From the NCBI RefSeq assembly GCF_034422975.1, contig NZ_CP139873.1, positions 619,810 to 643,809 on the forward strand: a stretch of DNA of 24,000 nt. The letters run 5' to 3'. How positions within the stretch are numbered: position 1 is the stretch's first letter; every line of letters begins with the position of its first letter. The notes beneath the pieces were generated by a model. That model was not told the DNA's origin. It saw only the letters and a program-made list of their open reading frames with translations, and did not search any database. The DNA is from Idiomarina sp. PL1-037 (GTDB taxonomy: Bacteria; Pseudomonadota; Gammaproteobacteria; Enterobacterales; Alteromonadaceae). Both the position numbers and the translations under genes were made by a program. Shown piece after piece: positions 3,431 through 21,116 of the stretch.

Positions 3431-4313
3431 GACTTCCCAGCTTTCTATTCGAGACTGTAAAAGATTTTGTGTAAATGGCTGACTGCACTGTTAAATCCGA
3501 TCATGATATATGATCTCGAATTGCGCCATGGCCGGTTTCCAGTTGCGCATGGGCATCGTCCACTTTTTCGATGCCTGATGCAAGGCTAAGTACAATACCT
3601 TCATGATGGCCTCATCATTCGGGAACGACCGGCGAGTCTTGGTAATTTTACGCAATGACGCGTTCAGCGACTCGATGGCGTTAGTGGTGTAGATAGCCTT
3701 ACGTATCTCCGCCGGGTATTCGAAGAATACGCTTAAGCGTTCCCAGTTTGCCCGCCATGAGCGGCTTATGGTCGGATGCTCTTCACCCCATCTTTCAGCG
3801 AACTCTTCCAGCGCCTGCTCTGTTGCAGCGCCATAAATTAGCTTTAAGTCAGCTGCGATGATCTTGCGTTGCTTCCAGTTTACGTAACGCAGAGAGTGGC
3901 GAATTTGATGCACAATGCACAGCTGTACCTGAGTCTTCGGGTAAACCGCTTCAATGGCTTCGGGGAAACCCTTCAGGCCATCGCAACAGGCGATAAAGAT
4001 GTCATCGACGCCGCGATGTTTAAGCTCGTTCATCACAGATAACCAGAATTTAGCGCCTTCGGTTTGCGCCATCCACAGGCCAAGGAGCTCTTTTTCACCG
4101 TTGGTGCTACGAACGGCCTTCTTGGTTTTGCCGTTACGGGAATTGCCGCTGTTATTGCCAGCCGCATCATTTGGGGCGTAGCCTAAATGGGCTTGCATCT
4201 CGGCTTCTAAAGTGCGTTCAGCGACTTTCTTGGTAAGCTGCTTGAGCAGCCCAGCTTCACCTAAAATGTCTTCTGGCGAGTCACAGCCATCAAGCAGCTG
4301 ATCGATGAGTTTG
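3430..4313 (-). mobile_element. IS256-family insertion sequence remnant (one end retained, other end lost; boundaries approximate)
   Basis: It contains the decayed IS256-type transposase gene. The 3' flank (gagactgtaaaagattttgtgtaaa, about 3451-3475) resembles IS256-family terminal repeats and abuts the truncated fic gene. The 5' part of the transposase gene and the other inverted repeat are missing where the tandem-repeat array starts. Confidence 0.7.
3491..4312 (-). pseudogene. IS256-family transposase, N-terminally truncated with an internal ~130-aa deletion
   Basis: Typical IS256 transposase blocks are present: KLIDQLLDG...LKQLTKKVAERTLEAEMQAHLGY, NSRNGKTKK, KELLGLW...AKFWLSVMNELKHRGV, CIVHQIRHSLRY, IYTTNAIESLNASLRKITK and KKWTMPMRNW. 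The reading frame upstream of Met-4198 stays open and homologous to about 4312 but has no start codon. The sequence jumps from ...RSTNGE directly to KELLGLW (junction about 4092-4097), deleting the segment that carries the first DDE Asp. Confidence 0.8.
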
Positions 4314-5630: not shown

Positions 5631-8072
5631 ATGACAAAAAATAACTTAACGATTGCTATCATGGCGGCAATGGGCCTGAGTGTCCCAGTTATGGCTTCTG
5701 CAGATGTGTTTATCTCAGAATTCATTGAAGGAAGCAGTAATAATAAAGCGATTGAGCTGTATAACAGTGGTGATACTGCAATTGACTTAAGCACATACAC
5801 ACTATCATTTTACTTCAACGGCAATACTGAATCCGGAAATGATATCAGCCTGTCCGATACCCTTGAACCACAAGCAACCTATGTTATTGCGAACAGCAAT
5901 GCAGTAAGTGCCATCACCGACAAAGGCCAGCTTTTAACTGGCGGGAGTTGGTACAATGGCGACGACGCTATTGTGTTAAGCCAAGAGGGCAACGTTGTTG
6001 ATAGTTTAGGGCAAATTGGCACCGATCCAGGTTCTTACTGGGAAAGCGACGGCGTGCGCACGCAAGATCGCACATTACGCCGTTTAAACAGCATCACGAG
6101 CGGTGACACGACAACGGATGATGCTTACGAGCCGCACACGCAATGGCAAAGTTTTGATAAAGACACCTTTGATGGCTTGGGTAGCCATTTAGATAGCAAT
6201 CCGGTTGAGCCTCCGCCAACATTAGCTATCGGTGAGTGTGGTGACAGCGCAACATTAATTTCTGCTGTGCAAGGCAACACCGACGAAAGCCCTTTGAAAG
6301 GTGAACAAGCGATTATCGAAGCTATCGTTACGGCAAGCTTCCAGGGCGATGAACAGTTAAGTGGATTTTTTGTACAACAGCCTGAAAGTCAGTACGACAA
6401 CGACCCGGCAACATCTGAGGGTGTTTTTGTATACCATAACGCTGATACGGTCAGTGTCGGCGACAAAGTACGTTTAGTTGCAGAAGTTGACGAGTATTAT
6501 GGCGCCACCCAACTGGCTACCGTTTCAGACTTTATTTTGTGTGATGAAGGCCTGTCGGTAACGCCAACAACGGTTGAACTCCCGGTTGAATCGCTGAATA
6601 ACTTAGAAGCCACCGAGGGCATGTTGGTTAGCTTACCGCAAGAGCTCACGGTGACGGAAAACTATGGTTTAGGTCGCTACGGCGAGTTTGTCGTCGCAAC
6701 AGGACGTCAATTTAATCCAACGCAAATTGCAGAGCCTGGTGAAGCGGCTCAGGCAGTGGCGGAAGCTAATCGCCTGTCACGTATATTGGTTGATGATGGC
6801 CGTACCGGTCAAAACCCAGAAATTGTCCCTTACCCTGCACCTGAGCTCAGTGCCATGAACAGCCTTCGCGTGGGTGATAGCGTAACGGGGATCACGGGGG
6901 TGATGACTTATGGTTTCTCAGCGTACCGGGTACATCCTACGGTTGCACCACAATTTATTGCCACTAATGCTCGTGATGAAGCGCCGGTCAAAGCAGAAGG
7001 TGCGACAGCGCGCGTCGCAAGCTTTAATGTTCTTAACTACTTTAATGGCGACGGCACTGGCGAAGGTTTCCCGACTGAACGTGGGGCAGACAGCTTAGTT
7101 GAGCTTGAGCGTCAACAGACGAAATTGGTTACTGCCTTAACGGAACTGGATGCTGACATCATCGGTTTAATCGAAATCGAGAACGATGGTTTTGGTGAGA
7201 ACAGCGCATTAGCAACCCTTACTAATGCGTTAAGTGATGCTTCGGGCAGCGAATGGCAATACGTCGACATGGGCGGAGACAACGTTGGCACAGACGCAAT
7301 CACGTCGGCCATTATTTATCGTACCGAGCAGTTCAGTGAAGTAGGCACACCGGCATACACAACCGCTGAACCTTTTGACTATGGTAACCGTGCTCCGGTA
7401 GCGCAAAGCTTTACCCACACCGAGAGTGACGAAGAATTCACATTTGTAGTGACACACCTTCGATCGAAAGGAAGTTGTGGTAGCGCCGAGGGCGATGACG
7501 TTGATAGCGGCGACGGCCAGGGTTGTTGGAATGCCACTCGAGTAACAGCAGCTAATGAGTTGCTGGCCTGGTTAGATGGCTATCCGACTGGTGTTGAAGA
7601 CAGTGATACTCTTATCTTGGGTGATATGAATGCCTACACCAAAGAAGATCCTATTGCTGTGTTCACTGATGCTGAGTACACCGATCTGAAAACCTCGATG
7701 ATGGGTGATGAGCACTACTCGTACATCTACCGTGGAGAATCTGGTAGCCTTGACCACGCCTTTGCCAGTGCGTCGTTGCAAGAAAAAGTTGCTGCTGTTG
7801 CAACTTGGGCAATCAATGCCGATGAACCTCCGGTGCTTGACTACAACCTCGAGTATCAATCAGAAACGCAACAGGCAAACTATTATGCGCCGGATGCCTA
7901 CCGCAGCTCCGATCACGATCCGGTCATCGTTGACCTGACATTCGAGGCGGAAGAGTCTGAAGGGCAACCAGAAGACGAGACACCAACAGTAGAAGAAGAC
8001 TCGTCGAGCAGTCACTTCAGTTGGTGGTTGTTGTTATTAGTACCGGCTCTGCGTTGGATGCGCCGCCGCTAA
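5631..8072 (+). CDS. Extracellular nuclease, ExeM/NucH/Xds type (lamin-tail domain + endonuclease/exonuclease/phosphatase domain) with C-terminal rhombosortase-type sorting tail
   Basis: I prefer ATG 5631, preceded by GAAGGA, over the TTG at 5583. It gives the signal peptide MTKNNLTIAIMAAMGLSVPVMASA|DV. The LTD signature is FISEFIEGSSNNKAIELYNSG. EEP motifs are RVASFNVLNYF, IGLIEIEND and SSDHDPVIVDL. The C-terminus is SSSSHFSWWLLLLVPALRWMRRR: a small-residue tract, a hydrophobic helix, then a basic tail. Confidence 0.85.
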   Translation: MTKNNLTIAIMAAMGLSVPVMASADVFISEFIEGSSNNKAIELYNSGDTAIDLSTYTLSFYFNGNTESGNDISLSDTLEPQATYVIANSNAVSAITDKGQLLTGGSWYNGDDAIVLSQEGNVVDSLGQIGTDPGSYWESDGVRTQDRTLRRLNSITSGDTTTDDAYEPHTQWQSFDKDTFDGLGSHLDSNPVEPPPTLAIGECGDSATLISAVQGNTDESPLKGEQAIIEAIVTASFQGDEQLSGFFVQQPESQYDNDPATSEGVFVYHNADTVSVGDKVRLVAEVDEYYGATQLATVSDFILCDEGLSVTPTTVELPVESLNNLEATEGMLVSLPQELTVTENYGLGRYGEFVVATGRQFNPTQIAEPGEAAQAVAEANRLSRILVDDGRTGQNPEIVPYPAPELSAMNSLRVGDSVTGITGVMTYGFSAYRVHPTVAPQFIATNARDEAPVKAEGATARVASFNVLNYFNGDGTGEGFPTERGADSLVELERQQTKLVTALTELDADIIGLIEIENDGFGENSALATLTNALSDASGSEWQYVDMGGDNVGTDAITSAIIYRTEQFSEVGTPAYTTAEPFDYGNRAPVAQSFTHTESDEEFTFVVTHLRSKGSCGSAEGDDVDSGDGQGCWNATRVTAANELLAWLDGYPTGVEDSDTLILGDMNAYTKEDPIAVFTDAEYTDLKTSMMGDEHYSYIYRGESGSLDHAFASASLQEKVAAVATWAINADEPPVLDYNLEYQSETQQANYYAPDAYRSSDHDPVIVDLTFEAEESEGQPEDETPTVEEDSSSSHFSWWLLLLVPALRWMRRR

Positions 8073-8130: not shown

Positions 8131-8286
8131 TTTAATGCTGCCGAGAAAATCCCGTGATCAGATCTAAGCGATGCCGCGGGGTAGTTCACAAAGTTAAGAT
8201 GGGAGGAAGTACCATCTTTAGCATCGAACATATAAAAGATTTACGTGCGGCGTTGAAACGCTACTTAGCAAAACCCCGCGTAAACG

Positions 8287-8316
8287 CTCGCCCACTCGGG
8301 CGGGGAGCAGTCACCG
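8287..8316 (+). repeat. IS200/IS605-type end-like hairpin element, copy A
   Basis: Copy A reads CTCGCCCactcGGGCGGGGAGCAGTCACCG. It is 26/30 identical to the reverse complement of 8981-9010, and all four differences lie in the hairpin loop. Confidence 0.7.
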
Positions 8317-8354
8317 CCTTATGATAAGTTTCGATAAAATCTTTCAAAGTCCGA

Positions 8355-8948
8355 CTACTTAATAACTTGCTGCTTGCTAAGCTGCGAATATAAAAGTGCC
8401 AATGACACGCCGCTGAGTGCCCCGCCCAAATGGCCCATCACCGCCACCCGGTCAACACTACTGAAACTTACGATCGGCTCTCCGATAAATGCCTCGATCA
8501 TCACCTTGCCAATCACCAGCAAGAGTAGCGTCCAGCCAAAAGGTTTACGCTTTAAAATATCTAACGTCGAACCCCAGGCAAAAAAACCATACAACGCGCC
8601 CGAAAAGCCGCGGTTCTCGACTACCGTTATAGCGTAAAACGGCGGTTGCGCAAACCAATGTTCAAATAATACCGAACCCAACGCTGTCGCCGCTAGCATC
8701 AGCCAAACCGGTGGCGGACTTAAATGCTCATCAAACAATAACCACATCACCAATAGGCCCACCAAACTGGCCAAGTAATGACTCAGCTCAAAATGAACCC
8801 ACCCGGCTGTTATAGCATCCCACCACTGGCCGTTGTCCCTCTGATAAGCCAAAAACCGGAGTGTCTCGTCCGGCAGTAGCATCAATACACTCAATAAAAG
8901 GGCAATGGGAAATAGTGTTAAAGGACCTTGTTTTATCTTTTCTCTCAC
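8355..8948 (-). CDS. rrtA: Rhombosortase (rhomboid-family intramembrane serine protease)
   Basis: This is a 197-aa polytopic membrane protein. It has LAYQRDNGQWWDAITAGWVHFELSH (a rhombosortase-like N-terminal block), GFSGALYG (the GxSG catalytic Ser) and MGHLGGALSG (the catalytic His helix). It is adjacent and convergent to a protein carrying a matching sorting tail. The start is GTG at 8948 with no obvious SD. Confidence 0.75.
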   Translation of the reverse strand: MREKIKQGPLTLFPIALLLSVLMLLPDETLRFLAYQRDNGQWWDAITAGWVHFELSHYLASLVGLLVMWLLFDEHLSPPPVWLMLAATALGSVLFEHWFAQPPFYAITVVENRGFSGALYGFFAWGSTLDILKRKPFGWTLLLLVIGKVMIEAFIGEPIVSFSSVDRVAVMGHLGGALSGVSLALLYSQLSKQQVIK

Positions 8949-8974
8949 TTAATTTTAGGCACCCGACATTAATT

Positions 8975-9150
8975 AAACTTCGGTGACTGCTCCCCGCCCT
9001 GCCGGGCGAGGCCTCCAACTTCTTAGGCAGCAACCGGCGTGTGTCCGAATTTACGCAAGCCTCCATTGGCAGGAACCGACAGTCCTTCGGCTCTTAGTTT
9101 GATAATACCCTGCTGCCGAATATTGATCGCGGCGTTGATGTCGTGGTCAA
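8975..9150 (-). ncRNA. Putative omega-RNA (reRNA) scaffold of the TnpB element
   Basis: This is inferred from position only. In characterised TnpB systems the guide RNA scaffold overlaps the tnpB 3' end and the right-end hairpin. The guide would then read into the flank at 8950-8975, just upstream of rrtA. I did not model any structure or covariation. Confidence 0.3.
8981..9010 (-). repeat. IS200/IS605-type right-end hairpin, copy B (13 nt downstream of the tnpB stop)
   Basis: The minus strand reads CTCGCCCggcaGGGCGGGGAGCAGTCACCG, with a 7-bp stem including one G-U pair. It is the inverted partner of 8287-8316. Confidence 0.7.
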
Positions 9151-10204
9151 GCTCTGCTGTACAAGCCGGGCATGTCCACTTGCGCACCGACAACCGCAAA
9201 GAATCGGCCTTGTGGCCGCAGCATGAGCAGATCCTGGAGCTGGCAAACCATTGGTCGATCTTGACCAGATGTTTGCCATGCGCTTTAGCCTTGTACTCCG
9301 GCTTCTGAATCAGGCCGAACCAGCTTGCGTCAGCGATGTGCTTGGATAGCTTCCGGTTCTTCAGCAGGTTCTTCAGTTTCAATGTCTCGACCACCACCGC
9401 TTGGTTGTCGTCAATGAGTTGTCGGGACAGGTTGTGCTGGAAGTCAGTACGGTTATTCGCTAGGCGCTCATGCGCCTTAGCCAGTTTCAAGCGTGCTTTC
9501 GTACGACCTTTGCTGCCTTTCTGGCAACGGGATAAGACTTTCTGCTTGCGTCGTAAGTTAGACTGGGCGTGTTTCAGGAAACGGGGATTCGTCGTCTTGC
9601 TATCTTCGGAGTCGATAGCAAGATGGGTTAGCCCCATATTAATGCCCAGAACGGTATCAACGCTATGCAATGGGGCAGGTGTTTGCAAGCCGTCTTCGAC
9701 CAACAGCGAGGCGTAGTATTTCCCTGTTACCGTGCGCGATAGCGTTACGCTCTTGAGCTTTCCGCCCAATTCACGGTGAACTCGCGCCTTAATTGGTTTC
9801 ATCTTCGGCAATTTTTTCCAGTTTTCGCCAGCACTCACACTCATGCAGTGGTAGCTGGATTGTTTACCATGTTTGCGCTTAAACTTCGGATAACGAGCGG
9901 GAAGCTTCGGGTCAAAGAAGCTCTGGAAGGCTTTATCAAGGTTGATGCACGCTTGCTGGAGTGCAATCAAGTAAAAATTCTTTAGCCAATGGTACTTGCG
10001 GGATTTTTTCGCCACCGCCAACAGCGGCTTAAGGTCTTTTTTGGCCTTGAGCTTCAGGCCGTGGCGTTTGTACTGTGAGCTGATGATATGCAGCACCTTG
10101 TTATGCACGAACCGCATAGCACCGAACTGGCGGTTGAGAAACTCTGCCTGTTCAGGTGTCGGGTAGATGCGTACTTTTGTGACCGCTAACATTTCAGCGC
10201 TCAT
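9023..10204 (-). CDS. tnpB: IS200/IS605-family TnpB (OrfB) RNA-guided nuclease homologue with a RuvC-I Asp->Asn substitution
   Basis: The N-terminal block is VRIYPTPEQAEFLNRQFGAMRFVHNKVL. RuvC-II is AVVVETLKL. The zinc finger is CSCCGH...CPAC. RuvC-III is DHDINAAINI. RuvC-I reads LGINMGL instead of the near-universal GIDxG (AAT codon at 9638-9640). An alternative start is the Met at 10192. No Y1 tnpA gene is adjacent. Confidence 0.85.
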   Translation of the reverse strand: MSAEMLAVTKVRIYPTPEQAEFLNRQFGAMRFVHNKVLHIISSQYKRHGLKLKAKKDLKPLLAVAKKSRKYHWLKNFYLIALQQACINLDKAFQSFFDPKLPARYPKFKRKHGKQSSYHCMSVSAGENWKKLPKMKPIKARVHRELGGKLKSVTLSRTVTGKYYASLLVEDGLQTPAPLHSVDTVLGINMGLTHLAIDSEDSKTTNPRFLKHAQSNLRRKQKVLSRCQKGSKGRTKARLKLAKAHERLANNRTDFQHNLSRQLIDDNQAVVVETLKLKNLLKNRKLSKHIADASWFGLIQKPEYKAKAHGKHLVKIDQWFASSRICSCCGHKADSLRLSVRKWTCPACTAELDHDINAAINIRQQGIIKLRAEGLSVPANGGLRKFGHTPVAA

Positions 10205-10459
10205 TGAGATATTTCAATCATTATAAGCCAGTAAGATCACACTTCAAGTGAGCATCCATAATAAAGCGTTGCTGTCAGATCACCTCCGAAACCGCCACAG
10301 GCGGTAAATAATTCGATCAGCTATGCGGCGTTTGTAATTGTAATGACGCTGTCACTAATCTATTTCATATTTCGTTGACTTTCACCCGATTATTAGCTTT
10401 AAGGAGCAACCAGAATGGGCTGACGAAGCATTAACTGAGCATACCGAAAATGCAAAAGA

Positions 10460-10494
10460 GATCGGTGACAAATGAGAATTATTTGTCACCGATC
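10460..10494. repeat. Perfect 14-bp-arm palindrome (GATCGGTGACAAAT-gagaatt-ATTTGTCACCGATC)
   Basis: I read it directly from the sequence. It sits exactly at the truncation point of the IS3 transposase fragment. A related palindrome lies at 12146-12184. Confidence 0.85.
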
Positions 10495-10504
10495 TGTTAA
10501 ATTG

Positions 10505-10687
10505 GGTAAACTCACGCAGACCGCCTATATCGAACGGTTTAATCAGACGGCTCGGCATGAATGGCTGGATATGCATCTTTTTGACAGCATTGCTCATGCA
10601 CAATTATTAACCACCCAGTGGCTGGGGCAATACAATAGCGAGGCTTCGACTCGGCCATTGGCGGAAAACCGCCAGCACAGCTGCTAA
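10505..10687 (+). pseudogene. IS3-family transposase (OrfB) C-terminal fragment
   Basis: GKLTQTAYIERFNQTARHEWLDMHLFDSIAHAQLLTTQWLGQYNSE matches the conserved C-terminal ..NAYIERFN...EWL.....F.....A......W...YN.ERPH block of IS3 integrases. The whole catalytic core is absent and the tail is degenerate. Confidence 0.7.
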
Positions 10688-13231: not shown

Positions 13232-13513
13232 ATGAAGACGAAACGCTCAGAGCTCGTCGAAGGCCTCAGTCTCAGTATTGATAACCAGGAAATTGGTGTC
13301 ATATCTCATTATTCGGGCGGTAAGAACATTTTAGCCTTTTCGCCTAATTATGTGGCGTTGCCTGCAGAGAAACGCAACACATTTACGATGTCGCAATTGG
13401 TTAATGAACGGGCTCTTCGTAAACCACTTATCAGTTCGCAACGTTTACCGCCGGTATTATCCAATCTTCTACCCGAAGGGGGCATTAAGACACTGGATGG
13501 CACAAGCGCTTAA
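13232..13513 (+). CDS. HipA N-terminal subdomain protein (HipS-like), 93 aa, or the 5' half of a frameshifted hipA
   Basis: AGGAAAG precedes the ATG. The protein contains the HipA N-domain pattern ending LPPVLSNLLPEG. The frame changes at a G5 run (13478-13482), after which only 9 more codons are read before the stop. Confidence 0.6.
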   Translation: MKTKRSELVEGLSLSIDNQEIGVISHYSGGKNILAFSPNYVALPAEKRNTFTMSQLVNERALRKPLISSQRLPPVLSNLLPEGGIKTLDGTSA

Positions 13514-14495
13514 AGTCCATCAAGACAATGAGTTCCCTTTAATGGCGCACATGGGCCGGGGTTTGCCCGGAGGTCTTATTGCATCACCGATAGTTGCAGG
13601 TCAGCTACCAGTTTGGGCGCTTGATCATCGTGAACAGGTCGAAGCTATACAAATTGACGTCGCCACCCAACAAAACAAGTTTTCCCTTGCCGGCGTACAA
13701 ATGAAATTCTCTTCAGTTCGTCACAAAGACGGCAGATTTAATATCGGCACTGATGCCAATGATGACAGCTGGATCATTAAAACACCATCCACTGTGCATC
13801 AGTTTGTGCCTTTTAATGAGTTCTCCGCTATGCGTCTGGCGGAGGCTGTAGGCGTTGATATTCCAGAGATAAAATTGGTTAAATTATCTAAACTGGATAA
13901 TCTACCAAATATTCAATTGCCGAACGAAGAATACGCATACGCAATCAAGCGATTTGATAGAGACAATGGGAAACGAGTGCACACTGAAGATTTTGCTCAA
14001 ATATTCCAGGTATACTCTCATGAGAAATATGAAAAATACAACTATGAACAGATTGCGGATGCGCTCTACTCCTACAGCCACCAAGGCTTAAAAGACGTCC
14101 AGCAACTGGCTAGGCGTATACTTGTGAATATATTACTTGCCAACGGTGATGCACATCTTAAGAACTGGTCGGTGATATATTCCAACCCTCAACGGCCCAT
14201 GTTATCTCCCGCGTATGACATAGTTTCAACAATACCTTACGTCAAAGGCGTGAGTGAATTCGCGTTAAATATGGCCAAAAACAAAAATTGGTATGACGTG
14301 AGCATGGCATCGTTCGAAATTTGGTCTAATCGTGTTGGTTTTCCGTGGCAGGCTGTCAAAGTACACATAACGGATACATTAGATAAAGCTCGGTCTGTTT
14401 GGCCTAAATTATTAACCGAATTGCCGATGCATCGAGAGCACAAGCAAGTGCTAAGACATCATTGGTCGAAACTGCATGAAGATTTTAGGCTGTGA
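13497..14495 (+). CDS. HipA-family Ser/Thr kinase core (HipT-like), 332 aa from ATG 13497
   Basis: The Gly-rich loop is KFSLAGVQMKFS. The catalytic motif is NGDAHLKNWSV. SPAYDIVST is also present. The ORF-track N-terminal extension from 13350 is out-of-frame reading through the HipS-like gene. Homology to HipA (ALRHW..) resumes right at the G5 run. Confidence 0.7.
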   Translation: MAQALKVHQDNEFPLMAHMGRGLPGGLIASPIVAGQLPVWALDHREQVEAIQIDVATQQNKFSLAGVQMKFSSVRHKDGRFNIGTDANDDSWIIKTPSTVHQFVPFNEFSAMRLAEAVGVDIPEIKLVKLSKLDNLPNIQLPNEEYAYAIKRFDRDNGKRVHTEDFAQIFQVYSHEKYEKYNYEQIADALYSYSHQGLKDVQQLARRILVNILLANGDAHLKNWSVIYSNPQRPMLSPAYDIVSTIPYVKGVSEFALNMAKNKNWYDVSMASFEIWSNRVGFPWQAVKVHITDTLDKARSVWPKLLTELPMHREHKQVLRHHWSKLHEDFRL

Positions 14496-14540
14496 ATCGG
14501 CATTTCTCTTTCTTGCGTAGCTGGTTAGTTCACCTGGCGC

Positions 14541-15854
14541 CTAACGCAAAGTCAGCTCCAATGCGCGACCGCGCTCACGAATACGGTCTGTTATGATCCC
14601 GTACATATCGTCGGGTAGTGGCGTTCGAAAGCCACTTTCGACCACCTTGAATAGCTTGCCGATGAGCTGTTTTAGTTGTTTTTCCACCAGAGCCTTCGGT
14701 AAGCCTACGTTCACCCCAAGCTGCACGAAGTCGCTTTGGGTATAAAAACCAAACTGCTCGTAAGCGTCACTGAAATAGCCGTCGTCTCCCTCTTCTGTTG
14801 CGAGAACGCCAATCGACGTGAAACAGGCGTGATCAAACATGGGATAGGGCGCTAAACTCAGTACGTCATAGATAGGGGTTAACATATCCATTGTTGAATC
14901 TTTTCCAGAGGGCTTGCGCATTAAGGAAAAATTCTTCAAGTGTAAATCATTGTTCGCAACAAGGTATGAAAAAACGACGTGTAAAAATAGGTTGAGCGTC
15001 ACCGCTTTACTGTTTCCTGCGGCCTCGCTTAGTCTTTTTAAAACGGTTTCATAACTTAATGCGTCGCTGTCCTTATGTTTTGGGTGGACGTCACATAATG
15101 ACGCGCCGTCCTCGACAAAGTATCGCTCACTCTTGCTGAGAATATCGAAACGCTTCGTCACATAAGCCAACTCTCCGTCTTCAAAGGGGACAAGGCCACA
15201 TTCAGCGGTTTTGAGTCCAACCTTATTGGCTAGGCTCATAACGAAAAACTCATTCTCGGGGCAATGCGGTACACCTTCCGGTGCAGGCTTTACAATGTAT
15301 TGTCCGCCGCGAGTCGTTGGCACGAGTTGATTACCTTCCAACTTCATCATCAGTTTGCGCTGCACGCCCGATATGGAATGACCGTTTGCATGATCGACTG
15401 CATAGTCATTGAATGATCGTGACGTGCCAACAATGCTGACGCCTTTGTCTTTCAAAATACTGGGCTTAGGAATTGGTATTTGAACAGAGCGCTGGCCTGG
15501 TAAATCGTCAACCTCACCGGCGACCACAGAAATAGAGCCAATTAGCTCTTCGCCGTTGGCGCACAACAAACCAAACTCATCGCTTTTATCAAGTCGTGCT
15601 TTTTGTGCTTGGTGGGTTCTTAACCATCCCTCTGAGAGCAAATTAGTAAAGAAGGGCGGTAGAGCATCAAACCCATACTGGGTCTTTGTAAGCGGAAGAT
15701 GATGACCAATTGGTGAGCCGTTTTCTAGGTAGTCTGCTGCATACGCAAATGCATATGACTCACGAGCAGATAAGTCGTGCGAAGCACGATATTCGGTGAG
15801 TATGCCCGCCTTCACACCATTGACGAATACGGTTGCGATACGATTAACGTGCAT
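14541..15854 (-). CDS. hipA: HipA-family toxin kinase (full length, about 437 aa)
   Basis: The N-terminus is MHVNRIATVFVNGVKAGIL. LPPFFTNLLSEGWLR, SISGVQRKLMM (Gly-rich loop), ANNDLHLKNFSL (catalytic) and TPIYDVLS are present. I prefer ATG 15854 over the TTG at 15908. It overlaps the upstream gene's stop by 11 nt. Confidence 0.85.
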   Translation of the reverse strand: MHVNRIATVFVNGVKAGILTEYRASHDLSARESYAFAYAADYLENGSPIGHHLPLTKTQYGFDALPPFFTNLLSEGWLRTHQAQKARLDKSDEFGLLCANGEELIGSISVVAGEVDDLPGQRSVQIPIPKPSILKDKGVSIVGTSRSFNDYAVDHANGHSISGVQRKLMMKLEGNQLVPTTRGGQYIVKPAPEGVPHCPENEFFVMSLANKVGLKTAECGLVPFEDGELAYVTKRFDILSKSERYFVEDGASLCDVHPKHKDSDALSYETVLKRLSEAAGNSKAVTLNLFLHVVFSYLVANNDLHLKNFSLMRKPSGKDSTMDMLTPIYDVLSLAPYPMFDHACFTSIGVLATEEGDDGYFSDAYEQFGFYTQSDFVQLGVNVGLPKALVEKQLKQLIGKLFKVVESGFRTPLPDDMYGIITDRIRERGRALELTLR

Positions 15855-16161
15855 CGGTGCGGCCAACATACAGTGTATAGTTACCAAACACAGCGATAAT
15901 GGACTCAATCGTTGAGCACTTCGCTGAGGCTGGCGAAGTAAATGCAGCGTAGAGTGTTGTTTTGCTGATCATCGCTAGGTCGCAAAAAGTGTCGATGGTA
16001 ATATCGTTTTCTTTCACGTATTGAGTCACACGCTCCTTTAGCTCTGCGAGTGGAAAAAGCTCTTTTTCTTCAAGCTCTTTTGCTTCTAGTCGCTCGATTT
16101 CACGCAAAAGCGCATTAACTTGCTGCTTTAACTCTGTGATGTGACTTTTCATGTGCTTCAC
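15844..16161 (-). CDS. Putative antitoxin/regulator of the second HipA (N-terminal coiled coil + C-terminal HTH), 105 aa
   Basis: It is translationally coupled upstream of hipA. LKQQVNALLREIERLEAKELEEKE is heptad-like. FCDLAMISKTTLYAAF...TIESIIAVFG resembles an HTH. It is not a standard short XRE HipB. Confidence 0.6.
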   Translation of the reverse strand: MKHMKSHITELKQQVNALLREIERLEAKELEEKELFPLAELKERVTQYVKENDITIDTFCDLAMISKTTLYAAFTSPASAKCSTIESIIAVFGNYTLYVGRTDAR

Positions 16162-16501
16162 CAGTGATAGTTCTTTTTACTGAACTTTTTAATATCTGAA
16201 TGACAATTTGTTTAATTTAGCATACTTTTATAAAGTTAATCACGCTTTAATGAACTTTTGGTGGAAAATATCTCAATTAAGTTTTCTATAGTGAACTTAT
16301 TATTTTTTCTTCTTTTGCTATCACACTACCGTTTGACCTAAACTTGTGATCAAAATAAATAACAACTTCAAACCTTGGCGGATCAACTACAGTCTTTGGT
16401 CACCAGTGACTGAGATGGGGATGTGACTCTCCCAAATTCCGACAAGCTCAAATTTACATCCGGTGCCGCTAGGTGTTGTAATTTATTAATTTTTTAGTTT
16501 A

Positions 16502-16531
16502 CACTAGGTTAATATCTTTATTAACCTAGTG
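16502..16531. promoter_or_regulatory. Perfect 13-bp inverted repeat (CACTAGGTTAATA-tctt-TATTAACCTAGTG), probable AbiEi operator
   Basis: It ends 8 nt upstream of the abiEi ATG. AbiEi antitoxins are known to autoregulate through inverted repeats in their promoter. Confidence 0.55.
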
Positions 16532-16539
16532 ATTACCAT

Positions 16540-17103
16540 ATGGGCGCGCATGAGCTTAGATTAAAGTTACATGAACTGCAAAAGTATACACGCCATGCGC
16601 TTTTATCAATGGCGCAATTCAGTATGATCATGCCGGAATACTCGAGCAGTGCATTGAAAGTACGCCTGAATTACCTTGTTAAAAGAGGCGTACTTCAAAA
16701 AGTTTGCCGCGGAGTCTGGGCATTCCCTGAAAGTCATTATTACCAATCAACCAGCATTTTACATTTACCGTACTTAGTACGTCCGTCGAGTATTAACTAT
16801 CTGAGTTTAGAGTCGGTGCTTAGCAAGTACAGTGTCATTAGTCAGCAGATGTTTGACTATATTACTGTAATGACAACAGGCAGGAGTGGCATTTTCAAGA
16901 CGTCATTTGGAACTCTTGAGCTTACCCATACGAAGCGAGATCCTATGGCAATACTAACCGAAACACATCCACTTGGTGATTACCCATTGAGAGAAGCAAT
17001 GGTAAAACGGGCTTACTCGGACTTGAAAAACGTGGGACGTAATGTTGAATTGGTTGATTTAGAAGCGCTACACGAGGCTCTTAATGAGCAAAGCTCTCTT
17101 TAG
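16540..17103 (+). CDS. abiEi: AbiEi-family antitoxin (type IV TA / abortive infection), 187 aa
   Basis: The N-terminal winged-helix block is SALKVRLNYLVKRGVLQKVCRGVWAF. It sits immediately upstream of, and overlaps, a DUF1814 nucleotidyltransferase gene. Confidence 0.7.
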   Translation: MGAHELRLKLHELQKYTRHALLSMAQFSMIMPEYSSSALKVRLNYLVKRGVLQKVCRGVWAFPESHYYQSTSILHLPYLVRPSSINYLSLESVLSKYSVISQQMFDYITVMTTGRSGIFKTSFGTLELTHTKRDPMAILTETHPLGDYPLREAMVKRAYSDLKNVGRNVELVDLEALHEALNEQSSL

Positions 17104-18010
17104 GATGGCAAATATGAACATTAAAGCACTCGCACAGATGATCTGCGCTGATTCGACCGAATTAGCCGGTCTTCAAACAACAGTTGAAAAAGAACTTCTC
17201 CATTACGAAGTACTGGCATCAATGGCAAAATCCGGCTTTCTAAAGCAACTTATCTTTCAGGGCGGAACATGTTTGCGCATGATGTATGGATCCAACCGTT
17301 TATCTGAGGACTTAGACTTTGTTGGCGGAACGAACTTTGACTTTGAGCAGTTATCTCACCTTCGTGATTGCTTGAAGGATGATCTCTCTGGACGTCACAA
17401 CTTGAAAGTGAATGTCTCAGAGCCTAATTACGATAAATTGACCGACCAAAACAGGATCCGAGTAAGACGCTGGAAAATCTCTATCGAGACCGAGCCGGAG
17501 AAAAAAAGCCTGCCGTGGCAAAAAGTAAAATTAGAAGTAGCAACCGTCCCTGCTCATACGAAAATCCTGCGCCCTCTGGTAAAAACGTATCCGAGTGTGC
17601 CAGACGGTTACACCAGTATTTTCATTAACTGTGAATCACTCGAAGAAATTGCTGCAGATAAGTTCGTTGCGCTAGCATTGCGGCGCACGATAAAAGCCCG
17701 CGATGTTTGGGATATTGGATGGTTGAATCAGAGAAAAATAAAAGTCGATGCTGAGTTAGTGTGTAAAAAGTTCAAAGATTACCAGGAAACGGGCGGCTTC
17801 AAAGCACTTGCTGAACGATTAACCCAATTGCCCTCGTATATCGGAAGCGGTGACTTTGAGCGAGAAATGCGGCGCTTCTTACATTCATCAACGATTGAGG
17901 GTAGCATCGAGCAAGATGGTTTTATGGATTATCTTATCGATACAGTGGCTAGTGCAGGCCAGAAATTGTTAAACGAGCAACGTGACGGACCGGCTAAATT
18001 TAGCATGTAG
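17084..18010 (+). CDS. abiEii: AbiEii/AbiGii-family nucleotidyltransferase toxin (DUF1814)
   Basis: LIFQGGTCLRMMYGSNRLSEDLDFV is the hallmark GGTxL..R.S.DLDF nucleotidyltransferase motif of the family. ADKFVAL is also present. Alternative in-frame starts are at 17105 and 17114. Confidence 0.8.
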   Translation: MSKALFRMANMNIKALAQMICADSTELAGLQTTVEKELLHYEVLASMAKSGFLKQLIFQGGTCLRMMYGSNRLSEDLDFVGGTNFDFEQLSHLRDCLKDDLSGRHNLKVNVSEPNYDKLTDQNRIRVRRWKISIETEPEKKSLPWQKVKLEVATVPAHTKILRPLVKTYPSVPDGYTSIFINCESLEEIAADKFVALALRRTIKARDVWDIGWLNQRKIKVDAELVCKKFKDYQETGGFKALAERLTQLPSYIGSGDFEREMRRFLHSSTIEGSIEQDGFMDYLIDTVASAGQKLLNEQRDGPAKFSM

Positions 18011-18299
18011 GCATCTATTTAGCGATTTCACCGTAAACGTCCGCTCGGTTGGGGTAGTGAGGGGTCACAATAGACTATCGACTGGGCTGACGCAAAGCCG
18101 AGGTCTACGATAAGTTACCATAAAAGTAATAATTTGTAGACCTATGGGTAAGCGCAGGCTATTTGTATTCTAGGGTTAGAAACTGCTTGAGCTGGGCTTA
18201 GATTCATAGTCTGTCAAAAATTATTTTTGGTTGGATTTGTCTATTTTCTCTACCTCACCACAAAGAAATGTTGGTTATATTCTCTGACGGCAAGAGATT

Positions 18300-18590
18300 T
18301 CAACAAATACGGTTCGGCGGCCGTTGTTGAGTAGCGTGAAGGACTCGAAGCACGCGGACTGGCACCCTGATCACGTCACAGACTAAAACATAATTTTGAT
18401 GAGCAACCAGCTCGCGAGTATCTGCCACGCGCCCAAGACGTCCTAGATTAGGATGTTCGGCTAATTGCGATGCCTTTTCTGAAAGCAGCTCATCTAGAGC
18501 TAAGGTCGCTGTGGGATTATCGGCTTCTATGTAATCATAAATGTCTTCGCGGTCTTGTATCGCCTCTGGCGTCCAAAGCAGCTCCATCAT
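18300..18590 (-). CDS. parE: RelE/ParE-family toxin, 96 aa
   Basis: LLWTPEAIQDREDIYDYIEADNPTATLALDELLSEKASQLAEHPNLGR.GRV.DTRELV...YVLVC is the ParE-type pattern. An ATGA start/stop overlap couples it to the upstream antitoxin gene. Confidence 0.8.
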   Translation of the reverse strand: MMELLWTPEAIQDREDIYDYIEADNPTATLALDELLSEKASQLAEHPNLGRLGRVADTRELVAHQNYVLVCDVIRVPVRVLRVLHATQQRPPNRIC

Positions 18591-18874
18591 TCAGAGTTTT
18601 TGAGCCGACGCCGCGTTGAAGCCCGACGAGCCGCAAATTCAGCTTCTACCTCAGCGGCAGGCACCAACTTACCAGCATTGGCCGAAGTCAGGCCAATCTG
18701 CACTTGTCGTCGGAACCAATCATCATGCTCTGCAGTTTCTTCCTGATGCTGTACGAATTCGCGCATGAAGTCTCGAAGAAGCTGCGCCCCGCTGCGGTCG
18801 CGAGACTTGGCGGCTTGAGCAAACTGGCTCTTCAAAGTCTCATCGACCCGAAATGTAAAAGTTGCTTCATTCAT
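18587..18874 (-). CDS. Ribbon-helix-helix antitoxin (ParD/CopG-like), 95 aa
   Basis: The N-terminus TFTFRVDETLKSQFAQAAKSRDRSGAQLLRDFMREFV fits an RHH fold. It is translationally coupled to the ParE-like gene. The pair is visibly more GC-rich than its neighbours. Confidence 0.7.
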   Translation of the reverse strand: MNEATFTFRVDETLKSQFAQAAKSRDRSGAQLLRDFMREFVQHQEETAEHDDWFRRQVQIGLTSANAGKLVPAAEVEAEFAARRASTRRRLKNSE

Positions 18875-19086
18875 GGCTGCACCCTCATGTATTACAAAAT
18901 AAGTACAATGTAGGACTTTGGCTGTTTATTGTCTATTGCTCTATCTTCCAACCTCAGAATGCAAATAGCCAAAGAAAATTCAGAGGCTTATCAACTGCAA
19001 CTTCGTCGACTGGAAGAGTTATTGGCAAGCTGATTTATCGCTCTGGCGAAAAGTTTTGTCTGCCATCTCCCGAACACGTGTCACTC

Positions 19087-19686
19087 TCATATAGGCTGCG
19101 TATCGCCACTCACGTTCCGTTGATGCTCTATAATGGCGTCTATCATTGATACCGCGCCTTTACTTAAGACGTACTTTGTCGAACTCACCTGAAAGATAAA
19201 CCCACACCGTTTTAGCATGCTGATAACGTTAGACTTATCCTTGAACTTTAACGCTCGTAATACTTGTTGCAGCTCTTCGTCACTATCCAGCATATCAATG
19301 TCAGCTACCGTTAACCCCTGAGCCGGCTCGCCGAGCAAGTGGAGAGGCTGCCCACGTTGTGTTGCTATACGCGCAAACAATGTTAATACCGCCATAACTT
19401 TTAAGGCGGCCTCATTAAATTCATCGTCTTCTTCGTCTTTAATTTTTGATTTAATGTGGAAAAATTCACCTTCACCATCATGCGCGAGGACATATCCCAA
19501 CTGCCAATACAGCGCTTCATAGTGACTATGATTGGTGACCAACTCTTGATACATGGAAGATTCTTTAAAGTCGGCAACGGACTGCACGTATTCGTGTTTG
19601 TTAATGATCCCGCCTTCAGCAAACATTTGATAAATGGCGCGTGAAAGATTAGGTGATGTTTGTGAGAACGTATTATTGATTTCCAT
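19087..19686 (-). CDS. Component C of the SMC-like operon: 199-aa acidic protein, possible MukE/MksE/JetB-like (KITE) subunit
   Basis: I prefer ATG 19686, preceded by AGAGGG, over ATG 19776. It overlaps the stop of component B by 14 nt. Its size, central acidic patch (KDEEDDEFNE) and two-lobed helical pattern are compatible with MksE-like proteins. This is resemblance only; I found no diagnostic motif. Confidence 0.6.
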   Translation of the reverse strand: MEINNTFSQTSPNLSRAIYQMFAEGGIINKHEYVQSVADFKESSMYQELVTNHSHYEALYWQLGYVLAHDGEGEFFHIKSKIKDEEDDEFNEAALKVMAVLTLFARIATQRGQPLHLLGEPAQGLTVADIDMLDSDEELQQVLRALKFKDKSNVISMLKRCGFIFQVSSTKYVLSKGAVSMIDAIIEHQRNVSGDTQPI

Positions 19687-21112
19687 CAGAACCCTCTGAA
19701 TGTTGTCGGGTGGCGGTAATATGACGAACGCAGTAACCCATTTCAGTAACAACCCCGGTATCAGGATCTTCTTCACGGATCTGCTTGAATGCCGGTAGTG
19801 CTTTAATCGTATACTGTTTGGAGGTCACCAGTGTGCTGCTTATCTCCAGCAAATCAGGTACTTTGAATCCTTCAAACGTGTTTTTGAGCTGTTCATAAGC
19901 ATGCGCGATAAAATCAACATTCTCCGGCCATGAATGCGATGTGACCCAGCGATTCAGACGAATTGAGTGCCGGATGGCAACAGCGCTGTCTTTTTGAATA
20001 ACGTCCTCAAACACCAATTTATCGTCGATACTATGGGCGCTTTGTAGGGTCCGGCGTGCCAGCTCATCAAACACGTTACTTAAAAAGGCCGGTTTCTTAT
20101 CAATCTGTATAGGGGCAGGGCGTTTGATTTTGCCCAGTGTTCGCTCCGGCGCTAAATCCTGCAGATCCGACAACTTGATATTTTTGAGCCGGCGATCGGC
20201 ACTTAATGTCTTATTATAAGCTTGCTTGATGATGACATAAGCCGACTCAATGGCGTTGTGCTCTGCAATCGCCTCTTTGGTCTTTCTCAGATAAATACTG
20301 ATATTGTCGGCGACCGCTTTTATTGGCTCGAATAAATCCAGGTATTGCAGATAGTAGTTCGTCATAAGCGCCTGGTACTCCAGATCGCCATTGCGGACAA
20401 AGACATTTTTTAACGCATCAATGGTCAGCAAAATACCATCACCTTTCTCGTAGCGCGTGTCTTTATCCAAAAATGAACTGAGCGGCTGCACTTCGCGACG
20501 ATAGAGTTTCGAGGCGTGCTCGAATTTAAACTTCATAGCATCAGGTAGCTCGCGCTCAGCCTCCTCTGCGATATCCTCCTGGAATTGTTCGCCAATCTGC
20601 TCCAGCTTCGTAATGTTGGCTTTTATTCGCCCGAGTAACCCCGTGATGTGGGCATTCAATGTGTCGGTCCATTCGTCGTATTCTTCAGTTCCCGGGGTAA
20701 GTGAAAGCCGCTTCTCATTGATATCTGACAGTATGGACCATATTGGCGTCATGGCTGACAGTAGTGAGGTTTTGTTCAACGGGCGATATAGGCTGATTTT
20801 GCACAGGCGAAATAAATCAATGATAACCGAGTTAAACCATAACTTTGTCACGCCGTCGGTGGCGCGTCGATCATCAAGCACCTTGGCAGACAATAAATTT
20901 TTATGGTCAAAAACGATGGTTACCTCTTTTTTCTTCTCTGCTGACAAGCCTTTTTTATATTCAGCTACCAGATAAAAGAATTCCGCCTCAATCACGGCAT
21001 TGCCCTGACGCTTATCAGACGTTTCAATAGCACGAAACATAAGCTCACGATGATTGAGCATTTTCAATATGGTTTCGATTGTACTGAAGCGTTTTTGTAT
21101 TAAGTCCGCCAT
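19673..21112 (-). CDS. Component B of the SMC-like operon: 479-aa helical protein, possible kleisin-like/middle component
   Basis: ATG 21112 lies 4 nt after the stop of component A, with GAGGTG 10 nt upstream. I recognised no catalytic motif. Its size is comparable to MukF/MksF/JetA. Confidence 0.6.
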   Translation of the reverse strand: MADLIQKRFSTIETILKMLNHRELMFRAIETSDKRQGNAVIEAEFFYLVAEYKKGLSAEKKKEVTIVFDHKNLLSAKVLDDRRATDGVTKLWFNSVIIDLFRLCKISLYRPLNKTSLLSAMTPIWSILSDINEKRLSLTPGTEEYDEWTDTLNAHITGLLGRIKANITKLEQIGEQFQEDIAEEAERELPDAMKFKFEHASKLYRREVQPLSSFLDKDTRYEKGDGILLTIDALKNVFVRNGDLEYQALMTNYYLQYLDLFEPIKAVADNISIYLRKTKEAIAEHNAIESAYVIIKQAYNKTLSADRRLKNIKLSDLQDLAPERTLGKIKRPAPIQIDKKPAFLSNVFDELARRTLQSAHSIDDKLVFEDVIQKDSAVAIRHSIRLNRWVTSHSWPENVDFIAHAYEQLKNTFEGFKVPDLLEISSTLVTSKQYTIKALPAFKQIREEDPDTGVVTEMGYCVRHITATRQHSEGSDGNQ

Positions 21113-21116
21113 AACT

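Follow-up and report, generated by a model that had tools for sequence, protein, structure and literature searches.

A likely stranded and nuclease-dead IS200/IS605-family tnpB remnant upstream of rrtA in Idiomarina sp. PL1-037

RESULTS

An IS200/IS605-family tnpB gene precedes the rhombosortase gene rrtA

The window analysed here is a 24,000-nt stretch of the Idiomarina sp. PL1-037 genome (contig NZ_CP139873.1, positions 619,810 to 643,809), and our subject within it is a minus-strand tnpB gene of the IS200/IS605 family of insertion sequences (ISs), together with rrtA, the rhombosortase gene that it precedes (Table 1). An earlier, sequence-only reading of the window had described this tnpB as an uninterrupted open reading frame (ORF) of 393 aa directly upstream of rrtA, otherwise intact but with Asn in place of the catalytic Asp of the RuvC-I motif. 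It had offered two explanations: an inactivating mutation in a decaying IS, or an RNA-guided DNA-binding protein acting on rrtA in the manner of the nuclease-dead TnpB-like repressors (TldRs). We found that the ORF does run without a stop codon and that rrtA does follow it directly on the same strand. The tnpB product matched the Pfam domains HTH_OrfB_IS605 (E = 9e-16), OrfB_IS605, which is the RuvC domain (4e-24), and Cas12f1-like_TNB, a zinc ribbon (1e-20), all three above gathering cut-offs, and thereby has the helix-turn-helix, RuvC and zinc-ribbon TNB architecture of IS200/IS605 TnpB proteins. Residues 11–376 aligned with TnpB of ISDra2 from Deinococcus radiodurans (8bf8/8h1j; phmmer against PDB sequences, E ~4e-61).

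Table 1. Features of the tnpB–rrtA locus and of the surrounding window (window coordinates; a slash marks a junction)
Feature	Position	Strand	Remarks
IS200/IS605-family remnant	8983–10300	minus	tnpB promoter region, tnpB, omega-RNA scaffold and right end; without left end, transposon-associated motif (TAM) or tnpA
tnpB ORF	9023–10204	minus	393 aa, open, no stop codon; gene callers start at Met5 (389 aa)
N189, RuvC-I catalytic Asp position (= ISDra2 D191)	9638–9640	minus	AAT, within LGINMGL; inferred ancestral codon GAT
E273, RuvC-II Glu (= ISDra2 E278)	9386–9388	minus	kept
H354-D355	9140–9145	minus	RuvC-III Asp (= ISDra2 D361) kept; adjoining Arg changed to His (CGC>CAC)
Y78-L79	9968–9973	minus	D78Y and S79L, both private and at invariant positions; ISDra2 counterpart of L79: K76
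sigma-70-like tnpB promoter TTGAAG-16-TATAAT	10220–10247	minus	10/12 consensus matches, conserved in the family
omega-RNA scaffold, 3' 150 nt	8983–9132	minus	overlaps the tnpB 3' end
right-end terminal hairpin CCTCGCCC-GGCA-GGGCGGGG	8992–9011	minus	followed by AGCAGTCAC (8991–8983), the element's cleavage end
guide-equivalent flank CGAAGTTTAATTAATGTCGG	8963–8982	minus	directly 3' of the right end, 15–34 nt upstream of the rrtA GTG
deletion junction, microhomology CTGTGG	10295–10300	minus	common to host (L089, ...TTACCGCCTGTGG/AGTG) and element interior (GACGCTGTGG/CGTTTTCGG)
host DNA	10301–10357	minus	in the sister lineage 95 nt upstream of the insertion site
rrtA (rhombosortase), 197 aa, intact	8355–8948	minus	GTG start (8948) conserved in relatives; 74 nt after the tnpB stop
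46-nt mini-element CAAAACCCCGCGTAAACGCTCGCCCACTCGGGCGGGGAGCAGTCAC	8269–8314	plus	left-end start fused to right end across a shared hairpin; after TTAG (8265–8268)
2OG-Fe(II) oxygenase gene remnant	~8150–8347	minus	gene follows rrtA in relatives
secreted nuclease-like protein, 829 aa	5583–8072	plus	lamin-tail plus endonuclease/exonuclease/phosphatase fold; convergent with rrtA
truncated IS256-family ORF (Transposase_mut)	3491–4198	minus	profile positions 191–377 only; another IS remnant
IS3-family integrase fragment (rve_3)	10472–10687	plus	beside a 15-bp-stem hairpin (10459–10495)
toxin-antitoxin/defence island	13350–23993		
HipA-like kinase	13350–14495	plus	in island
HipA-like kinase	14541–15908	minus	in island
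AbiEi/AbiEii	16540–18010	plus	in island
large ORF	19673–21127	minus	in island; no Pfam match
large ORF	21117–23993	minus	in island; no Pfam match

TnpB carries Asn at the RuvC-I catalytic position

In the phmmer alignment, GINMG of the window protein lay opposite GVDVG of ISDra2, pairing N189 with D191. The catalytic triad of ISDra2 TnpB and the roles of the residues that contact its TAM are known from cryo-electron microscopy (PMC10097598), and ISDra2 residues Y52, S56, K76, F77, Q80, T123, N124 and D191 all fell on the residue types published there, so that the alignment register is right and N189 occupies the position of the catalytic D191, as had been read from the sequence. In place of a complete RuvC Asp-Glu-Asp (DED) triad, the window TnpB therefore reads N189-E273-D355. 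Asp was present in this column in 119/119 non-self homologues (75–90% identity), as well as at every related genomic locus where the RuvC-I motif was found and readable. Asn was found in one genome only, that of the window copy, and the Asn allele had no match in the JGI metagenomes. The nearest metagenomic homologues, P0002 and P0004, stem from other samples.

The possibility that the Asp of the nearby AIDSED motif is the catalytic residue, which would have overturned the sequence-only reading, was rejected: this Asp aligns with the non-catalytic AIVTDG strand of ISDra2, and the family uses the canonical GxDxG Asp. An apparent second case of Asp-to-Asn substitution at a related locus (L059, a pattern match to GINIG) proved to lie in another frame or gene; tnpB at that locus is frameshifted but keeps its Asp.

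Asp-to-Asn substitutions in RuvC-fold enzymes are the classic cleavage-dead, binding-proficient mutants, and by analogy with these enzymes and with ISDra2 TnpB the N189 protein should not cut DNA. Mutation of any residue of the DED triad has been found to abolish TnpB cleavage (Wiegand et al. preprint, bioRxiv 10.1101/2023.11.30.569447).

The element keeps its right end and lacks left end, TAM and tnpA

The window copy belongs to a family in which a left end is followed by tnpA (a divergent Y1 transposase, Y1_Tnp), tnpB with its omega-RNA, and a right end, the whole being inserted 3' of TTAG. About 50 left-end junctions read TTAG/CAAAA..., which identifies TTAG as the TAM, and the right end ...GGGGAGCAGTCAC is common to about 67 copies. 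The TTAG-inserting family ending in GCAGTCAC was found in Idiomarina, Nitrincola, Marinobacterium, Vreelandella/Halomonas, Endozoicomonas and Serratia (L001–L088); the sole exception to TTAG among the left-end junctions listed is L030, with TCAG.

Homology between the window and about 12 family members begins at ...CTGTGGCG(G/T)TTTCGGAGG and stops exactly at ...GGGGAGCAGTCAC, and the right end of the window copy accordingly stops at 8983. On the side upstream of tnpB, family homology begins only 96 nt before the ATG, so that neither tnpA nor a left end is present. Where relatives carry the Y1 (HUH) tnpA the window has host DNA, and of the two hairpin ends with a TAM 5' of the left one, only the right end is there. 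The only left-end-like motif found in the window belongs to the 46-nt mini-element described below. The 96 nt that remain include TTGAAG-16-TATAAT, the best promoter-like site in the region.

A sister lineage carries the empty site

L089 (Logan SRR29340318), a contig from a different sample, matches the window at 93% identity across rrtA and has no TnpB insertion, and thus presents the empty site. Upstream of rrtA it reads ...TTACCGCCTGTGG, then 95 nt ending in the terminator GGGGGGCTTCGATCCACTTTTTTAG, then CGAAGCTTAATTAATGTCGAGTG...; terminator, TTAG and CGAAGCTTAATTAATGTCGA follow in that order, the last segment being the guide flank of the window. The 58-nt left host segment, with CTGTGG at its end, is present on the contig too, 95 nt before the empty site. 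Across the junction, the element reads GACGCTGTGG/CGTTTTCGGAGG where the window reads CCGCCTGTGG/CGGTTTCGGAGG. The joint between right end and rrtA had no match in the JGI metagenomes. Homology between L089 and the window breaks at ~10357/10358, which marks a further rearrangement breakpoint.

The omega-RNA scaffold is preserved and its guide is the insertion flank

A structured omega-RNA scaffold extends from within the 3' part of tnpB to the right end. The consensus structure of 30 sequences has 33 pairs, 15 of them with compensatory changes, and the window keeps 32/33, with one pair broken (A-G) and two G-U wobbles. An Rfam scan of the whole window found nothing; Rfam holds no family that matches the scaffold. 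Since promoter, ORF and omega-RNA scaffold are intact, a TnpB–RNA complex may still be made.

A target of the guide would read TTAG plus CGAAGTTTAATTAATG. The flank at 8982–8963 matches the TTAG-preceded empty site of L089 with 2 mismatches. Elsewhere in the window there was no guide match with up to 3 mismatches; the sole match is the donor joint, which is preceded by TCAC, the right-end terminus, and not by TTAG. Because the matching site that bore TTAG appears to have been deleted, the guide would have nothing to act on at the locus. The sequence-only reading had pointed out that the guide region abuts the 5' region of rrtA. The position is as stated; it says nothing of targeting, because an IS200/IS605 guide is the DNA flanking the right end and so marks the landing site.

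Further private substitutions accompany D189N

The description of the element as otherwise intact did not survive comparison with its family. Beside the missing left end, TAM and tnpA, the window TnpB departs from the family at 15 columns with a conservation of at least 95%, more than any other of the 120 sequences does (median 2; next highest 12). These deviations comprise D189N and 14 further private substitutions, including Y34H, D78Y, S79L, I130K, G201D, L302P and R354H; through the last, RuvC-III reads DHD where 119/119 homologues read DRD. The base-specific TAM contact of ISDra2 aligned with S79L is K76, and K76A abolishes cleavage (PMC10097598).

Pairwise ratios of non-synonymous to synonymous substitution rates (dN/dS) were 0.09–0.19 for the window copy against 0.05–0.16 among other copies. 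Private changes on the window branch numbered 32 synonymous and 36 non-synonymous (branch dN/dS, or omega, ~0.33), compared with an omega of 0.11–0.18 for sister copies; polarised by outgroups, they numbered 16 synonymous and 26 non-synonymous (omega ~0.48), and those of the pooled sisters 18 and 12. Private changes were biased from GC to AT (39 vs 20), and the copy has moved toward the host in GC content. Frameshifts are frequent among family members (L025, L046, L059, L064).

rrtA is intact and may receive transcripts from the tnpB unit

The rrtA product matched Pfam Rhomboid (E = 1e-11), one homologue is labelled GlyGly-CTERM serine protease by its source, and the protein fits the description of a rhombosortase, a rhomboid-fold intramembrane serine protease that co-occurs with GlyGly-CTERM proteins. 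Homologues of rrtA likewise encode 197 aa. The dN/dS of rrtA against L089 was ~0.28. Relatives of rrtA at 57–93% identity have no TnpB upstream; in those at 62–77% identity an S8 peptidase with a GlyGly-CTERM tail is followed by a terminator and then rrtA. The upstream peptidases of rrtA relatives end in GGGGGSSSSFGFLVGLLALPFAILRRR. The S8 peptidase encoded at 6–2861 of the window was considered as a displaced ancestral neighbour of rrtA and rejected, as it is not orthologous.

The stretch from the tnpB stop to the rrtA GTG showed nothing like a promoter or a terminator. With the tnpB promoter intact and no terminator between the two genes, read-through of transcription from the tnpB/omega-RNA unit into rrtA is plausible. 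The sequence-only reading had also held that rrtA now lacks an obvious promoter or Shine–Dalgarno sequence of its own. The lack of a promoter-like site is borne out; the implied loss is not, given that relatives without the insertion equally show no obvious promoter or Shine–Dalgarno signals in the about 37 nt between terminator and GTG.

Decay of a stranded copy best explains the locus

Because of the empty-site comparison, the missing left end and the lack of conservation, we consider it likely that this locus is a stranded, nuclease-dead IS200/IS605 remnant, an ordinary decaying IS and neither a TldR nor a working system. The simplest course of events that can be proposed takes three steps. 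Once this lineage and that of L089 had split, a full copy would have landed behind the TTAG next to the terminator upstream of rrtA; the synonymous distance (dS) between the two rrtA genes is only 0.11. A deletion between the host CTGTGG and the same hexamer just upstream of the tnpB promoter would then have removed 95 nt of host DNA, and with it the terminator and the TTAG TAM, together with the left end and tnpA. Because TnpA needs both ends, this would have put the copy beyond excision or copying. GC-to-AT-biased point mutations would have followed, among them GAT>AAT (D189N), R354H and, in the TAM-reading helix, D78Y/S79L. A likely side effect is that tnpB/omega-RNA transcription would leave the right end into rrtA. 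Of the two explanations first offered, that of an inactivating mutation in a decaying IS is thus the one upheld, by the loss of left end and tnpA, by an insertion specific to one lineage and by the largest private load at conserved positions among the 120 sequences.

Several observations weigh against decay of this kind. Neither the tnpB promoter nor the omega-RNA scaffold shows appreciable damage. Omega of the window branch is significantly below 1 (p = 0.018) and does not significantly exceed that of the sister copies (Fisher p = 0.09). Nor do conserved columns take a significantly larger share of the private states than in other homologues (p = 0.49), so the substitutions are only suggestive of protein decay beyond D189N, and the statistics alone do not prove relaxed selection. 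Furthermore, the ORF has neither a stop nor an indel despite about 42–68 private substitutions. In simulations the probability of no stop was ~0.27–0.36 after 26–35 random substitutions; that no indel arose is mildly surprising for a purely neutral sequence. The substitution data agree with a branch under constraint for as long as the element was active and under relaxed constraint once it was stranded, and the missing indels leave some room for a reason to hold the frame open.

In an alternative that we hold unlikely, the remnant is not inert: once the deletion had taken away the native upstream region of rrtA, read-through from the tnpB promoter and omega-RNA unit would have become the main source of rrtA transcript, with selection against polarity keeping the ORF open while the protein decays, or, less likely, the N189 complex would be an incipient TldR of a single lineage with a TTAG-flanked target elsewhere in the genome. 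In its cis-regulatory form, this alternative has the remnant kept since the strong tnpB promoter and obligatory transcription across the right end supply rrtA mRNA, the ORF being held open against the Rho-dependent polarity that a premature stop would impose on rrtA and the TnpB protein being dead. Transcripts that cross the right end into the flank are what omega-RNA biogenesis in TnpB systems needs, and several features of the locus agree with such co-option: TTGAAG-16-TATAAT is intact, no promoter-like or terminator-like site separates tnpB from rrtA, the deletion took out the terminator found before rrtA in L089 and more distant relatives, rrtA is intact and under constraint, and the ORF is open and free of indels yet has many missense changes at invariant sites. 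However, in relatives without the element the about 37 nt that lead up to the GTG hold no recognisable promoter either, so that a native promoter may have gone unrecognised and survive in the 34 nt retained, and an open ORF is also compatible with chance. We regard co-option in this form as improbable.

Exaptation as a TldR, in which TnpB(N189) and its omega-RNA would form a nuclease-dead RNA-guided DNA binder regulating rrtA or a distant TTAG-flanked site, is less probable still. TldRs form clades with conserved RuvC deterioration, often of at least two DED residues and with C-terminal truncation, are associated with a new gene in a conserved manner, lack transposon ends and have guides that match TAM-flanked promoters (bioRxiv 10.1101/2023.11.30.569447). 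Like them, the window protein derives from TnpB, its RuvC site is damaged, no tnpA accompanies it and a non-transposon gene flanks it on the same strand; the RuvC-I Asp was lost while ORF, zinc finger, omega-RNA scaffold (32/33 pairs) and promoter were kept, left end and tnpA are gone as in TldR loci, and branch omega is below 1. Taking as the operational criterion the loss of at least two DED residues and/or C-terminal truncation, conserved across a clade, we find instead a single copy in one genome with 1/3 DED residues changed, a full C-terminus and an intact right end, and Asp in all other homologues. Neither the RuvC change nor the association with a non-transposon gene is conserved: tnpB adjoins rrtA in this lineage alone, the site being empty in the sister lineage. 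The guide is the insertion flank, its TTAG is deleted, no TAM-flanked target lies in the window, and the TAM-reading helix has two private substitutions. The suggestion that this TnpB acts on rrtA as an RNA-guided binder is hence not upheld.

The least probable account, almost negligible in our view, is that the Asn is not functionally decisive, being an assembly or sequencing error or leaving TnpB(N189) with nuclease activity: Asn can weakly ligate metal and is a single base (G>A) from Asp, but the Logan assembly of SRR26974595, which may be of the same isolate and is not necessarily independent, is 100% identical over 14.9 kb, mutants of the DED triad and of RuvC-fold enzymes behave as described above, and even an active protein would have no TAM-flanked target left at the locus.

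The neighbourhood of rrtA holds other mobile-element traces

The 46-nt mini-element lies 40 nt beyond the rrtA stop, at a site that is empty in L089, and its right end is turned toward that of the tnpB remnant, with rrtA in between. It resembles the PATE/MITE-like (palindrome-associated and miniature inverted-repeat) miniature derivatives of IS200/IS605 elements in consisting only of a terminal hairpin and both cleavage ends, at TTAG; the likeness concerns the mini-element and not the tnpB remnant. It may have transposed in this form or have collapsed in place. It splits the oxygenase gene remnant, of which the first 11 codons (LKDFIETYHKA) are recognisable; beyond them the frame is lost and comes to a stop. 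In L089 the remnant is degraded in the same way but has no mini-element in it. On L081, a TARA contig with the closest rrtA relative outside the L089 lineage (77%), the left end of a related element lies at ~6035–6099, about 1.5 kb downstream of rrtA. The neighbourhood of rrtA has been struck repeatedly by the IS family of the tnpB remnant.

The C-terminus of the 829-aa nuclease-like protein, SSSSHFSWWLLLLVPALRWMRRR, is like a GlyGly-CTERM signal without the Gly-Gly, and this protein is probably a rhombosortase substrate. In addition to the genes listed in Table 1, the defence island includes ParE and a cluster containing MksE (gene calls on L080).

DISCUSSION

The window element is built on the plan of ISDra2. 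It shares with ISDra2 TnpB the three-domain architecture, a near-full-length alignment and a CCCC-type zinc finger, and in both systems the omega-RNA shares sequence with the 3' end of tnpB and terminates with the right end, the flank serves as guide and the target motif lies 5' of the left end. The TAM of the window family is TTAG, in contrast to TTGAT in ISDra2. The window copy further differs in having Asn at the D191 equivalent and private substitutions at the positions equivalent to R360 and K76, and in its deleted left end, TAM and tnpA, which leave it immobile.

Actively spreading copies in Idiomarina aquatica, Nitrincola, Marinobacterium, Vreelandella and others (L001–L029) show what the remnant has lost. 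They are 80–91% identical to the window tnpB in nucleotides and have the same right end, omega-RNA and promoter; unlike it, they keep Asp189, the left end, TTAG and usually tnpA. The closest relative, in Idiomarina aquatica SN-14 (90% aa identity), is present as two identical copies (L001/L002) with different flanks and the same internal tnpA deletion. Both keep the left end, TTAG and Asp189, and this is evidently a non-autonomous derivative mobilised in trans.

The locus serves chiefly as a warning: an open TnpB ORF that has one RuvC substitution and adjoins a host gene resembles domestication of the TldR type. As by-products, the analysis sets out a locus history in order, from insertion through microhomology deletion to point inactivation, and defines the TAM (TTAG), the ends and the omega-RNA structure of a TnpB family that is widespread in marine Gammaproteobacteria. 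If read-through into rrtA is real, the locus would be one more IS remnant supplying a promoter to a host gene, which would be of modest interest, and the TTAG TAM could be useful if TnpBs of this family are tried as editors.

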